From a virus, in IMG/VR virus record IMGVR_UViG_3300050821_003463, positions 30,544 to 94,543 of that record: a DNA stretch of 64,000 nucleotides; one strand, given 5' to 3'. Shown one piece after another: positions 8,882 through 30,592 of the stretch (position 1 is its first letter; the number at the start of each line of letters is the position of its first letter). The notes beneath the pieces are model-generated. The model had not been told where the DNA came from. It saw only the letters and a program-made list of their open reading frames with translations, and made no database searches. The translations under genes were made by a program, and so were the position numbers.

Positions 8882-9147
8882 GGTTTCCATCCCTCCAGGT
8901 GCCAGAATTTTACTTCCAGATCGCGAGCCGTGGTCCGGAGAACCTCGATTCGCAACTTCCCGCCGTGAACTCCATCGATATGACAGTGCCTGCAAAGCGT
9001 CAGGAGATTTGACATCTCATCAGAGCCGCCCGCGCTCCGGTAGATCACATGGTGCGGATCGAGCGTCTGTCGGTTCCCGCAGTGTCGGCACTTCCAGCTA
9101 TCCCGCTGATACACCGCGTTGCTGATCGCTCTTGGCAGGCTCGGCAT
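8878..9147 (-). CDS. HNH endonuclease
   Basis: RDSWKCRHCG...HHVIYRSAGGSDEMSNLLTLCRHCH; start MPSLPR. Confidence 0.85.
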   Translation of the reverse strand: MPSLPRAISNAVYQRDSWKCRHCGNRQTLDPHHVIYRSAGGSDEMSNLLTLCRHCHIDGVHGGKLRIEVLRTTARDLEVKFWHLEGWKP

Positions 9148-24249: not shown

Positions 24250-24465
24250 TTACTGCTTCAGCGTGTTCTTGTGCTGAGCAGGCTTGTTGAATTCACCCTT
24301 GTGTGTGACCTTCACGGTTTGCCCGATTGCATTCCCGAAAGCCTGTGCGACTGCGTCGCAGCCTTTGCCCTGGTACCCATTCAGGTCTACCGTTTGGTCG
24401 CCGGTGGCGATGTCAATGTTGATGGTGATTATCTTAGCCAAAGTGCCCTCACTTTCGGTTGTCAA
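24250..24465 (-). CDS. DUF2997-like protein
   Basis: ITINID..G...LNGYQGKGC...KGEF; adjacent to DUF1257-like gene. Confidence 0.7.
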   Translation of the reverse strand: MTTESEGTLAKIITINIDIATGDQTVDLNGYQGKGCDAVAQAFGNAIGQTVKVTHKGEFNKPAQHKNTLKQ

Positions 24466-24856
24466 TGAATTGGAGTTGAACTTTCCCGTTGACGATCTTC
24501 TTGCCGAGGAACTGCAGACCGTTCTTGCGCGCGGTCTTCATGTCCACCTTCTCGGTATACGCGACCTTCAGTTTCGTCATCCAGGTAGCGTCGTGCTTGT
24601 TGCTATCGTAGTCGCTGACGATTGCGCTGTAGGTCCCGTCCGCTGCTTTGACAAAGCCGAGATCGTTCGCTGCGCTACCTATGTGCTGGCGGCGCACGAT
24701 GACGTTGGCTGTCTGTGCTCGCTTGTCGCCGTGATAGCCGAACAAGTTCTGTGCGACTTCGTTCACTTCCACGTTCTTGTAGCCCATCTCACCAAGGGCT
24801 TCGACAAGACAGTCGCGATCTTTGTACTGTGTCTTCTGTGTGTGGTATGCGCTCAT
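24449..24856 (-). CDS. DUF1257 (Ycf35-like) protein
   Basis: LVEALGEMGY, GYHG, NDLGF...YSAIVSDYD. Confidence 0.75.
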   Translation of the reverse strand: MSAYHTQKTQYKDRDCLVEALGEMGYKNVEVNEVAQNLFGYHGDKRAQTANVIVRRQHIGSAANDLGFVKAADGTYSAIVSDYDSNKHDATWMTKLKVAYTEKVDMKTARKNGLQFLGKKIVNGKVQLQFIDNRK

Positions 24857-25131
24857 GCTATTCGTTCTCCCTTCGAATTTGTTTGCCCGCGTTGACGAGA
24901 ATGTCGATTACGTTAACGGCGTCTTGCTGTGAAAGTTTGCCCGCGTTCATCGACCAGCCGACATACAATAGCGCGTGGGATATCTTGAGATACCCGGGTG
25001 TGTGCCACGGTTGCTTCATCGTGTTCCCCTCTCATAATAGTTGGCGCGCGCTTCGAGTGCTGCGCGCTTTGCCTGTGATCCGCGCCGCCACATGTAGACC
25101 AGCGCGACGATTGCGAGACTGAAGATAACTT

Positions 25132-25590
25132 TCATAGTGTCCTCTCAGCAAAGAATTTATTGAGGAAGGCGATCTCCGCACTGATAGCTGCTTGTCTGTC
25201 GTGCGTCGTGAACGTCCGGTGATCCATCCACGCAGCGACGGGCGACGGTGCGACATGCTCCCAGGTTAGAACAGGTCCGCCGACAGGGGACGTATCGACT
25301 CGCCACTCGCATGCCCACGTTCGTGTCCACGCTGCGACCTTGCTCGTGTCGCTGGAGAGTATACGAAGTAGATTGAAGGCGAGACGCAGTAGCCAGCCTG
25401 CGGGTTCTACGTGCGACGCGCGCTTCGTGATCACCTCTCCGAGTTCGAGGAAGCAATCTGCGCTGTCGGTCTTCAGGAAGACTTGGTCACCATTCTCATC
25501 TATCGTGACGGTGATAATCTTGTGCGCTGGAATCGGGAACGTCTTGGGATATCGCGCGTCGTACCCTTCAGGTTTTGAGATGTGCTTCAC
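25132..25590 (-). CDS. Hypothetical protein, part of AAA module
   Basis: RASHVEP...WRVDTSPVGGPVL...DRQAAISAEIAFL. Confidence 0.6.
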   Translation of the reverse strand: MKHISKPEGYDARYPKTFPIPAHKIITVTIDENGDQVFLKTDSADCFLELGEVITKRASHVEPAGWLLRLAFNLLRILSSDTSKVAAWTRTWACEWRVDTSPVGGPVLTWEHVAPSPVAAWMDHRTFTTHDRQAAISAEIAFLNKFFAERTL

Positions 25591-25649: not shown

Positions 25650-26560
25650 CTAGCGAAACTTTCTGCCAGAGGTGATAACCATCGTCTTCAGTTCAGCGCG
25701 TACGCCTTCGAGTTGAGAGATGACGTACTGTTGAAGGTTGCCCGACTCTTTCAGGCGTTCGACCGTGACACCCTGCATCGCGTTCTTCACGACTTGCATG
25801 TTCTTCATGAAGTCCACGTCGTTCGCGAGATCACGATCAGGCAGCGTGTCGAGGAACTCTTGCAGGTGCTCGACGTGACAGCCGTACATCTTCTTCGTCT
25901 TGCCCGCTTCAGGCTTGAGCATCGCGAAGAGTGCGTCGACCATCTCAGCACCAGCCAAGCGCATCGCATCGCGCCACTCGATAACAGCCTGCATGCGGAT
26001 GCTGCGTTCCTTCTCCTGCTCACGGGCGATAATGATATCGCTCATGCCGGTGAGGTTCACGCTGCCGACGTTGCGGTAGTTGAACTCCAGAACGAAGCCA
26101 GCCTCTACTGTGTCGCTCGCTGGATAGTCGCTCCGGTCAAAGTTCTCAGCAAGAACCTCGCGCAGCGGTTGAAAGTCTACCGCTTCGAGTTCCCTGTACT
26201 TCGTCATGAACGCCTCGACTAACTTGGGGCGTCGAATCGTCTGGTATGCGACGATGGCGCGGTCCACTTCGTTCAGCCACTTGCGCGGAAGGAAGCGCGT
26301 TGCCTCGCGATACCAGCATGACTTGGACTCGACGTAGCGCTTCAGGAAGCCGTCCTGTGAGCGAATCTCTTCGAGTTCGGGTGAGTCCATCAGGCGTTTC
26401 TGGTGACGCAGTTCACTCGCCTGTGTAGCGGTTTCGACTTTCAGATTCTTGATCTGGCGCATGCGACCGATGCCCATGCGGAAGTTGATGGTGATTGAGA
26501 CGCAGCTTTCAGTCTTGCTCAGGTCAACGTTCGCGACGGGTGCCACTGCGGGTGATGCCA
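25650..26560 (-). CDS. DUF3150-like helical protein with C-terminal GRKFR
   Basis: FDRSDYP motif; position next to Ycf46-like ATPase; start may be 26576. Confidence 0.5.
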
Positions 26561-26703
26561 TTTTATTTTCTCCCATAAGAAGTTTGTGGCGCGATTTATT
26601 TTGTGACTACGTCGCGCCGTCGGTCAGCCTGAGCCGCCGTGCTTACTGCGACTTCAGTTCACTACAGTTTAACGTCATGGAGTGAGCGTATGGACGGTTG
26701 CTA

Positions 26704-28254
26704 CTACCGCATCTTGCGTCCTTCCGTTATCTTCACGGTCGGCGCGTGCTTGGTTGCGGGTGGAGTGTACTTGTAGACGCCCTGGTTAGATGCCGACAGG
26801 AAGCGGTCGGTAGCTCCAGCGCGTAGCACCTCCATCTCTTCTTTATGACTGGTCATCAGAGGGATGATGTATTGACCAGCATCTTCCAGCGTGACGCGCA
26901 TCTTCCGCGCCTTGTTAGCGCAGTTCTTGATGTCGCGCCCAGTCCAGCCCGTCATGTCGGGGTAGGTCTGTGCGGGGAGTTTGTTCGCTGTAACTTTCAG
27001 GTCCATGATGCCCTTCTTCTCTTCGTCGTTCGGCGCATCAAAGAAGAAGATGTCAGCGAAGCGGGAGAGCAGTTCGGGCGGTAGACCGTCCAGTTTGTTT
27101 GCGGTTGCGATGAGCCACACGCGACCGTCGCTAATGGATTGCACGGTGTGATTCGCGCTCACCATGTTTTTGTTCGAGTTGCCAACCAGTGAGTCTTGCA
27201 TTTTTGAGATGCTGTAGTCGATGACTGGCTTGTCGAACTCACCAGCGATGCAGTCGATGCTGTGCGACTTAGACGAGCCCGGTACACCCAGGAACAACGA
27301 GCAGTAGATGTCGTTATCGTTCACCCAGGTCAGCCACTCGCCAAGTAGGTCACCCTTGACGCCGCTGCTGTCGGTGTCGTTCCCTGAGAACTGGCGTTGT
27401 ATCTCATCCATCCTCAGAATCACGGTGGGTGATTGCTCACCAGTCATCAGCTTGCGACCGTATGCCTTGATCGATTCAACCCCGTACAGGTCCTTCAACT
27501 TCAGACCACCTGCGCGGTAGGTCAAACCTTTCTGCTGGGAGACGATAGTCTTCTTGCGAAGCCACAGCGTCTCGATATCCAAAATGCCCTTCGCTTTGTC
27601 CAAGCACATCGCAGTCGCCTGCTCTGCTGGGAAGAGAGGGATTCCGATGAGTGCGTCAACAGCGTTCAAGACTACCGCTTCACTCGGTCCAGCCTTGCAC
27701 GCTGCGTACTTCACTTTGTCACTCGCGTATGCGTACGCGTATGTCTCGCGGACGATTGCTGCGAGTTCAGCGCGCGTCGGCAGTGGATGCTCTAGCACCA
27801 GCGTGTCTTGCTGCAACACGACTGGGATGCTGTCACCGATTCCGAGGAGTAGCACGCACATGTTACCGCGCGCCTTGTAATCGTTGCGCAGATTGGCAAC
27901 ACCCTGGATGACTTTCTTGTCATCGTCCCAGGTGAGCTGCGGATTGAGGATGAATGCGAGGACATCTTCCTGCGCTGCTTCGAGGATGCCAAGCGCGATG
28001 GGCAGGTCAACCGATGCGCCGACTTCCATGCCGCTCTCGCTCGCCATCTTCTGTAGAGCGCTCGTGCCAGCGTCTGTAAGCCCGCGTAGCCCGTGGATGC
28101 TGTCCCAGGCTATGAAGGGGGTGACCTCTGCGAGTTCAGCGCCCAGCGAAGCCTGTATCGTCGTAATGGTCGACGTAGGATCGAAGGTGCGGATAGCGAC
28201 GGTCGGGGTCGATACCGCGCGTGCGTCAGTGAACATCTCAATGAATGACTTCAT
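26704..28254 (-). CDS. Ycf46-like AAA+ ATPase with rearranged Walker motifs, C-terminal GRKMR
   Basis: MDEIQ, GVPGSSKS, IATAN, LPPELLSRF, FFFDAP, WTGRDI. Confidence 0.85.
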   Translation of the reverse strand: MKSFIEMFTDARAVSTPTVAIRTFDPTSTITTIQASLGAELAEVTPFIAWDSIHGLRGLTDAGTSALQKMASESGMEVGASVDLPIALGILEAAQEDVLAFILNPQLTWDDDKKVIQGVANLRNDYKARGNMCVLLLGIGDSIPVVLQQDTLVLEHPLPTRAELAAIVRETYAYAYASDKVKYAACKAGPSEAVVLNAVDALIGIPLFPAEQATAMCLDKAKGILDIETLWLRKKTIVSQQKGLTYRAGGLKLKDLYGVESIKAYGRKLMTGEQSPTVILRMDEIQRQFSGNDTDSSGVKGDLLGEWLTWVNDNDIYCSLFLGVPGSSKSHSIDCIAGEFDKPVIDYSISKMQDSLVGNSNKNMVSANHTVQSISDGRVWLIATANKLDGLPPELLSRFADIFFFDAPNDEEKKGIMDLKVTANKLPAQTYPDMTGWTGRDIKNCANKARKMRVTLEDAGQYIIPLMTSHKEEMEVLRAGATDRFLSASNQGVYKYTPPATKHAPTVKITEGRKMR

Positions 28255-30078: not shown

Positions 30079-30592
30079 GATGCGTAAAGTGGGGGAGTAT
30101 CTTGTGTTCGATTCAACGAACTCGCACAGCATGCCGGTCGACCCTGCGAGCGCACTCTCAGATTGTGAAGGCCCGCATGCTGTACACGTTTTTGAATCGG
30201 CTGTCGTTCTTTGCGCCGTGCCCGTCAGGAGCACCGCTTGGTAGTCAGGATATTTACCAGCGAGGCGATTGTGTCTCAATCGTATAGGGAGTCTTTACCG
30301 TGCATCGTCGCCTGTCCGCTTGTGTGGACTCAGGTCTGATTACCTTCGCTGTCGCATCCTCGTTTGCGTCGGCTGTATTACTCTGCTGTGGCGATTAGTG
30401 CGGCATCACAGCGCGACTGGATTAGTGCGACGGGCTAGGCAACGATGGTTTGGAACCCTTACTCGTCTTCTATTCGGCTACTACCCGCTAGTCTCAGGGG
30501 CTTTTGCTTTGCCTCTCCCCTGTGGGCGGTTGCTCTAACTTTTCACGCCTGCTTTGTTTCGGTTCGGGTGAGTGTCTTGCACTTCCGAACTG
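30042..30592 (-). ncRNA. Candidate structured ncRNA of about 550 nt between its own promoter and terminator
   Basis: No credible ORF; dense helices and a pseudoknot. Confidence 0.55.

Follow-up and report, generated by a model that had tools for sequence, protein, structure and literature searches.

The window, that is, the whole stretch of 64,000 nucleotides analysed here (positions 30,544 to 94,543 of IMG/VR virus record IMGVR_UViG_3300050821_003463), carries on its minus strand a gene for a protein of 516 amino acids (26704–28254) whose open reading frame (ORF), AlphaFold2 model and VIA-align superposition showed a two-tier AAA ATPase, D1-like and D2-like, with a permuted D2 core. The block holding Walker B precedes the block holding Walker A in this protein, and the arrangement is very probably (about 0.83) a non-circular permutation of the known AAA kind in which the active site is preserved. 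An earlier note on this DNA had placed a Walker B segment ahead of Walker A and had described two internal blocks as swapped between unchanged flanks in a manner that was not circular. The first statement was confirmed with exact coordinates, and the second was found to hold family-wide by block hidden Markov models (HMMs) and by the constant spacing of 44 residues reported below.

The chain of the catalytic module runs from a linker helix through the Walker B/pore-loop-2/α3 block (residues 276–316) and the Walker A/α1/β2/α2 block (residues 317–376) to the sensor-1/Arg finger block (residues 377–425); all coordinates of the gene given hereafter are on the minus strand. The N-linker and helix α0 (residues 236–272; 27439–27549) were found in their usual place before the core by p97 profile alignment and the block N0 HMM. 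The family consensus of the linker was F.D.GG....K.F, and profile positions 236–257 aligned with p97 274–295 (WEDIGGLEDVK). The moved block, block B (27307–27429), was delimited by hhalign, BLAST, DSSP and direct coupling analysis (DCA) and comprises β3 with Walker B (VILRMDE), a pore-loop-2-like DSSG loop and α3 (LLGEWLTWVND). Its stretch P276–W310 (PTVILRMDEIQRQFSG..DSSG..LLGEWLTW) corresponds to 27429–27325. The motif V278ILRMDE284 lies on a predicted strand and is homologous to the canonical Walker B block; its acidic pair D283–E284 (27403–27408) was identified by conservation in an alignment of 148 sequences. Block A (27127–27306; Pfam AAA, p97 profile match and DSSP) contains β1, the P-loop, α1, β2, the pore-loop-1 equivalent (SLVGNS) and α2. 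Walker A, G323-V-P-G-S-S-K-S330 (27265–27288), was recognised by alignment as a match to the GxxxxGK[ST] P-loop, in a variant of the window's subclade that has Ser or Ala where Gly precedes the Lys; the consensus in the wider family is GxPGxGKS. Block C (26980–27126; Pfam AAA 98–130 and p97 397–500) contains β4 with sensor-1, LPPELLSRF with the Arg finger, and β5, and VWLIATANKLDGLPPELLSRF starts at 27120. Sensor-1 N386 (27097–27099) and the Arg finger R398 (27061–27063) were both invariant, the former aligning to p97 ATN and the latter to the p97 RxGR region. A canonical Walker B after Walker A was also looked for and was not found: between Walker A and N386 neither an hhhhDE motif in the sequence nor an extra strand in the DSSP assignment was present, and the interval is taken up by β2, the pore-loop equivalent VGNS and a single long helix.

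The Pfam AAA model (PF00004) matched the protein with 32.8 bits against a gathering cut-off of 21.2, as two fragments (profile positions 2–47 and 98–130). The central part of the model, with its Walker B, was unmatched in order, and the linear succession of Walker A, Walker B and sensor-1 that PF00004 requires was absent. Comparison of the 148-sequence family profile with the PDB gave p97/Cdc48 as the best matches (E about 1e-34), out of order on D2: profile positions 302–354 (the Walker A block) matched p97 312–364, positions 259–298 matched 368–410 (Walker B and α3) and positions 345–442 matched 397–500, while the usual N-linker (DIGGLE.VK) was matched separately, upstream of all other blocks. 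Out-of-order HMM matches had been predicted in the earlier note, and both the p97 D2 profile and the split Pfam AAA match delivered them.

The block-B profile aligned to the full canonical profile at Walker B/α3 (canonical 352–391) with an hhalign probability of 98.7% (E 1.7e-16), compared with 3.6% against the positionally equivalent region before Walker A of the canonical profile. Alignment of the permuted family (A2) with the canonical family (A3) by hhalign gave a probability of 100% (E 2.6e-50) over residues 4–480 with block B displaced. A BLAST comparison with gp65 of Aeromonas phage HJ05 (WEV89366.1, 555 amino acids), a relative with canonical order, was colinear from residue 19 except for a segment of 39 amino acids in HJ05 (APCVALVDEVDKVF..DSGV..LGTMLTFMQE) that faced a gap in the query, and residues 270–316 of the query alone aligned to exactly that HJ05 segment (350–389). 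Since block B is homologous to the canonical Walker B/α3 block and the flanks are unchanged, the change is a clean transfer, i.e., a non-circular permutation. Overall, the block order together with the homology of each block is far beyond chance. Mimicry of Walker B by the N-linker was considered and rejected, as the linker was found separately upstream and the match of block B to that region was limited to the 3.6% given above.

The homologue search produced 367 relatives, all of about 517 amino acids, from JGI, ENA, NCBI and Logan assemblies, and an exhaustive search of representatives produced 3,287 clusters at 50% identity (E<1e-3), 862 of them with E<1e-30. Walker B stood before Walker A with a constant spacing of 44 residues in all 217 proteins in which both motifs were recognisable. 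Block HMMs gave the order N0-B-A-C in 265 of the 269 proteins of the permuted set, the remaining four being fragments, and the order (N0-)A-B-C in 120 of 120 canonical, HJ05-like relatives. Homologues with the same order, which the earlier note had suggested seeking, are thus found throughout the permuted set and include gp103 of the isolated Tunturiibacter phage Tunturi_3 (37% identity). In addition, IMG/VR contigs of 75–103 kb carried the permuted order, and chromosomal homologues in Desulfobacterales and Paenibacillus had the canonical one.

Residues E284, G326, K329, N386 and R398 were invariant in the 148-sequence alignment (A2, 30% mean column identity), in which D283 and G323 were at least 90% conserved; S330 was invariant among 17 closer relatives (A1). 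The Walker A P-loop is interrupted by an intein in P0171 and P0241, both of the permuted family, and in P0274 of the canonical family; these inteins have Intein_splicing or Hom_end_hint domains along with endonuclease domains of the LAGLIDADG or HNH type. Such elements tend to be inserted where a protein is conserved and functionally important. Taken together, the invariant catalytic residues and the P-loop inteins argue for catalysis, as far as sequence can indicate it. Coevolution within the family was strongest between position 397 (27061–27066 for residues 397–398) and position 440 (26935–26937): R397, in the second region of homology, occurred with A440 in 99 sequences, and S397 occurred with R440, in the GxD motif of the lid (sensor-2), in 138 sequences including the window protein. 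This pattern looks like the relocation of an arginine between two nucleotide-facing sites.

Structure prediction by AlphaFold2 with the family alignment gave a model with a predicted local distance difference test (pLDDT) score of 95.6 and a predicted template modelling (pTM) score of 0.89. DSSP assigned to this model α0 at 260–270, a strand at 278–282, a helix at 299–313, a strand at 317–323, a helix at 329–339, a strand at 344–347, a helix at 357–375 and strands at 379–385 and 401–405. The core consisted of five strands, one of them from block B, and would have four without it. When residues 2–485 of the model were compared with p97 210–763 (7lmz_C, D1 and D2) by VIA-align, 397 residues were aligned with a Z of 17.3 and a root-mean-square deviation (rmsd) of 4.4, and the C-terminal module aligned with p97 D2 (3cf0_A) over 202 residues (Z 15.6, rmsd 2.6). 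The N-terminal tier showed the usual strand order and no P-loop and, on the model, is a dead D1. The model of HJ05 gp65 (pLDDT 87.1) contained these elements in canonical order and aligned with 3cf0_A over 263 residues (Z 25.0). On the four single-domain chains used for both proteins (p97 D2 and Vps4), the permuted protein aligned with 52–61 fewer residues and approximately 8–10 fewer Z units than HJ05, a loss that is expected because an order-dependent aligner must skip the displaced block.

Mean-field DCA was performed on 258 permuted sequences (effective number of sequences, Neff, 193) over 265 columns. Couplings between β3 and β4 were found at 280–381, 283–384 and 285–383, and β3 was further coupled to β2 (279–342), to the P-loop (281–327) and, from its start, to the C-terminal end of α2 (278–375). 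Ten of the top 132 pairs joined α3 to α2 in parallel register and six joined α3 to pore loop 1. No coupling of β3 with β1 or β5 was found in these 258 sequences. The canonical contacts expected as controls, β1–β5, α0–β1 and α0–α1, were present. The five predicted strands and the β3–β4, β3–β2 and β1–β5 couplings fit a 5-1-4-3-2 order, and it seems from the model and the couplings that the usual 5-1-4-3-2 sheet and the spatial placement of α2 and α3 were kept, with only the connectivity of the chain rewired. A homotrimer prediction (three copies of residues 236–500 with ATP) returned a score of 0.00, a value that means no verdict.

Several points weigh against a preserved active site in a permuted but otherwise usual fold. 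The three-dimensional placement of the blocks rests on DSSP, couplings and topology reasoning and not on coordinates, and AlphaFold2 and DCA share one alignment, so that they are not independent of each other. At a Neff of about 193 for 265 columns single couplings are weak, and the strand pairs ranked between 28 and 122. Activity is not guaranteed with Ser in place of Gly before the P-loop Lys (GVPGSSKS), and the pore-loop-1 position is occupied by Leu and not by an aromatic residue. No protein with two B blocks and no B-A-B duplication intermediate was found among 389 proteins. In favour of the permutation, 41 permuted and 40 canonical proteins fell on the two sides of one branch in a maximum-likelihood tree (Shimodaira-Hasegawa approximate likelihood ratio test, SH-aLRT, 100). 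This split is compatible with a single origin of the permutation, although it is a weak test, the canonical set having been sampled around a single query.

The atypical Walker A of the subclade, together with a dead N-terminal tier that shows the lineage to tolerate inactive AAA folds, would also suit a switch without a working Walker B, in which the upstream block is a relic that now serves as a linker, binds a partner or has some other function, and ATP is bound and hardly hydrolysed. However, at about 30% identity E284 is invariant and D283 at least 90% conserved along with K329, N386 and R398, which is the pattern of a working site, and the wider family keeps the canonical GxPGxGKS. Couplings also put the block-B strand beside β4, the P-loop and β2, and the core would be left with only four strands if block B took no part in it. 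Such a switch is therefore considered improbable.

The earlier note had offered two explanations of the block order, a rewired P-loop topology and a domain-swapped oligomer, of which the first was upheld and the second proved unnecessary. In a domain-swapped oligomer block B would be donated to the neighbouring protomer, and active sites would exist only in the assembled ring. Block B does follow immediately on the inter-tier linker, at the N-terminal border of the module, DCA is blind to the difference between contacts within and between chains, and the active sites of AAA proteins in any case include an Arg finger from the adjacent subunit. Nevertheless, the AlphaFold2 monomer places block B without a partner at a pLDDT of approximately 95–98, and the linkers are short (approximately 3 residues from α3 at 313 to β1 at 317, and approximately 7 from α0 at 270 to β3 at 278), which favours packing in cis. 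By topology reasoning, the loops have to shift by no more than one or two strand widths for a rewiring in cis, and a swap is rated even less probable than the switch. When domains stand in an unusual order in a metagenomic record, the first suspicion is an artefact of assembly or annotation, i.e., misjoined reads or a rearrangement specific to this contig. Nothing was found in its support. The intact frame, the strongly conserved residues and the recurrence of this order, at unchanged spacing, in more than 260 proteins from hundreds of independent JGI, ENA, NCBI and Logan assemblies and in the isolate Tunturi_3 exclude the misassembly that the earlier note had asked about and leave the artefact a negligible chance.

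The results above show the order of the sequence, the homology of each block, its conservation throughout the family and the predicted secondary structure and couplings; for the exact three-dimensional placement, the ATPase activity, the formation of a ring, the mechanism of origin and the biological role of the permuted ATPase, we infer the following scheme. A block of approximately 40 residues, consisting of β3 with the Walker B Asp-Glu pair, the pore-loop-2 loop and α3, has been transposed within the catalytic D2-like tier from the interval between α2 and β4 to the interval between α0 and β1. The resulting chain runs α0-β3-α3-β1(P-loop)-α1-β2-α2-β4-α4-β5; in the folded protein β3 would adjoin β4, β4 would adjoin β1 and the crossover helices would all lie on the usual face of the sheet. 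Established ASCE (additional strand, catalytic E) topology was used for the reasoning on the crossover helices. By this rewiring α3 would reach β1 in place of the adjacent β4, α2 would reach β4 in place of the adjacent β3, and α0 would reach β3 in place of β1. With the helices on the usual face and the strands neighbouring each other, none of the three new loops would have to span more than one or two strand widths, and the active site would be preserved. This site would be formed by P-loop Lys329, Walker B Glu284 and sensor-1 Asn386, with Arg398 contributed in trans.

The protein most likely forms a ring, hydrolyses ATP and remodels or unfolds a protein substrate, and an ATP-driven, ring-forming remodeller or unfoldase is what would be expected by analogy with its structural relatives. 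Its probable partners are the DUF3150-like, DUF1257 and DUF2997 proteins encoded downstream, with which it may act at an early stage of the infection. A single origin of the permutation, in a phage lineage, is probable. Most simply, the Walker A–Walker B segment would have been duplicated in tandem and the outer copies then lost; direct transposition is an alternative. A full-text search of the literature found no AAA+ or P-loop ATPase in which Walker B precedes Walker A, although its coverage was incomplete and the result is weak evidence of novelty. On balance, the odds lie slightly in favour of this being the first natural AAA+/ASCE clade, large and phage-borne, with a non-circularly permuted yet catalytically competent core.

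Outside the catalytic core, the protein begins directly at the D1-like fold when the model is compared with p97. This degenerate fold (residues 1–235; 27550–28254) has the usual order and was delimited by sequence, alignment and p97 superposition; it carries TFDPTST at the GK[ST] site and has no P-loop and no Walker B. By hhalign it is homologous to the N-domain of the canonical relatives. The helical lid (residues 426–500; 26755–26979) was assigned by p97 lid profile alignment and hhalign, with WTGRDI as the counterpart of G.SGAD and R440 at the sensor-2 position. The C-terminal tail G-R-K-M-R (residues 512–516; 26707–26721) is predicted to be disordered, with a pLDDT below 50 at 514–516, and R513 in it was invariant. 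A tail of the GRKMR type was found in 135 of 260 permuted relatives vs. 5 of 120 canonical ones, the latter often ending in ..LDG.

The genome, that of a soil phage, is a complete IMG/VR virus record of 94.5 kb with genes for, among others, a terminase, an SU10-type portal, a family A DNA polymerase, a prim-pol and a helicase, and the ATPase gene sits among minus-strand genes. A second AAA-type ATPase gene of usual order was found in the same phage at 9098–10306 (minus strand; Pfam AAA profile 1–109, E 3.5e-7). Downstream of the permuted ATPase gene the same strand carries four genes, for a 308-amino-acid DUF3150-related protein, a 152-amino-acid protein, a DUF1257 protein and a probable DUF2997 protein. 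The gene for the 308-amino-acid product (25650–26576, minus strand) was distantly DUF3150-like by BLAST (E 3e-7), the target being a DUF3150 protein beside a canonical ATPase on a Desulfobacterales chromosome; the product had no direct Pfam match. It ends in GRKFR (25650–25667), and the ATPase encoded by the adjoining gene ends in GRKMR. The DUF1257 (Ycf35-type) gene (24449–24856, minus strand) matched Pfam PF06868 above the cut-off (E 3.9e-9) and the probable DUF2997 gene (24250–24465, minus strand) matched PF11211 below it (E 0.011), and in Tunturi_3, HJ05 and Desulfobacterales (L005) the corresponding position holds a clear DUF2997. The ORFs at 25132–25590 and 24858–25019 (both minus strand), between the DUF3150-like gene and the DUF1257 gene, had no family match.

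In Tunturi_3 the DUF1257 gene stands directly after the ATPase gene, and the set AAA-DUF1257-DUF2997 was common to a permuted ATPase (Tunturi_3) and a canonical one (HJ05). The Desulfobacterales chromosome has a canonical AAA gene in the order AAA-DUF1257-DUF2997-DUF3150. As the same neighbourhood accompanies permuted and canonical ATPases, the permuted protein is the ATPase of a conserved module. A pair of DUF2997 and Ycf35 genes has been recorded in cyanobacteria (PMC4284462). Assignment to a defence system was not adopted, since PADLOC gave only weak AAA matches of the IetA/TRIP13 type and no match for the partner genes; NCBIfam gave only IteA (E 0.03).

A fixed order of elements is regarded as a hallmark of the AAA+/ASCE core, and all family models incorporate it. 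The permutation explains the poor annotation of these proteins, in which Pfam matches are fragmentary or absent and the scores of defence models fall: approximately 40% of the close homologues had no precomputed Pfam domain, and the PADLOC IetA score was E 9e-21 for canonical HJ05 vs. 1.4e-4 for the permuted protein. A large natural clade with exchanged core blocks and retained active-site residues represents a rare non-circular permutation in the core of an enzyme, and a natural experiment on folding order and the tolerance of P-loop motors to changes of topology. If this is correct, the most conserved connectivity of P-loop motors would not be obligatory, and the inter-tier linker would be joined to the Walker B strand and pore loop 2 without intervening elements, with a possible effect on the communication between tiers. 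In addition, the permuted protein marks the ATPase of a widespread AAA/DUF3150/DUF1257-Ycf35/DUF2997 module of bacteria and phages. It is accessible to experiment, as the isolated phage Tunturi_3 on Tunturiibacter psychrotolerans has the permuted form.

Among known systems, the closest are the canonical relatives HJ05 gp65 and Desulfobacterales L005, which have the same two-tier architecture and full-length homology to the window protein. The canonical relatives share with it the DEI/VDK, DSG loop, LTWMQ and LPPEL motifs and the DUF1257 and DUF2997 genes downstream, plus DUF3150. They have Walker A, Walker B and sensor-1 in that order and one continuous Pfam AAA match (profile 1–129 of 131), whereas in the window's family block B stands before block A, the proteins are approximately 40 amino acids shorter and close members end in GRKMR. 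Some canonical relatives are labelled 'SpoVK/Ycf46/Vps4 family' by JGI, and the Ycf46-like naming refers to these; the comparators used here are not cyanobacterial or plastid Ycf46 proteins. The best structural and profile matches were the type II classic-clade unfoldases p97/Cdc48/VCP, Rix7/NVL and AFG2, which likewise have two stacked AAA folds. The window protein is homologous to AAA proteins of this classic clade and would work in the same manner. Unlike proteins of the p97 type, the window protein has no N-terminal double-psi-barrel, its D1-like tier has no P-loop and its D2 core is permuted.

Circularly permuted GTPases (cpGTPases; YlqF/YqeH/YjeQ) are P-loop nucleoside triphosphatases with their motifs in the non-standard order G4-G5-G1-G2-G3 and the fold kept. 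They differ from the window ATPase in that they are circular permutations of the GTPase class, whereas the window ATPase shows an exchange of internal blocks between fixed flanks in the AAA/ASCE class. The capsid protein of Bordetella phage BPP-1 is a non-circular permutation of the HK97 fold (PMC3863775). It is a structural protein of the capsid studied by electron cryo-microscopy, whereas the window protein has an enzyme core and its permutation was recognised from sequence, prediction and coevolution. The two are alike in that each is a phage protein keeping a classic fold with the topology of its chain non-circularly rearranged.

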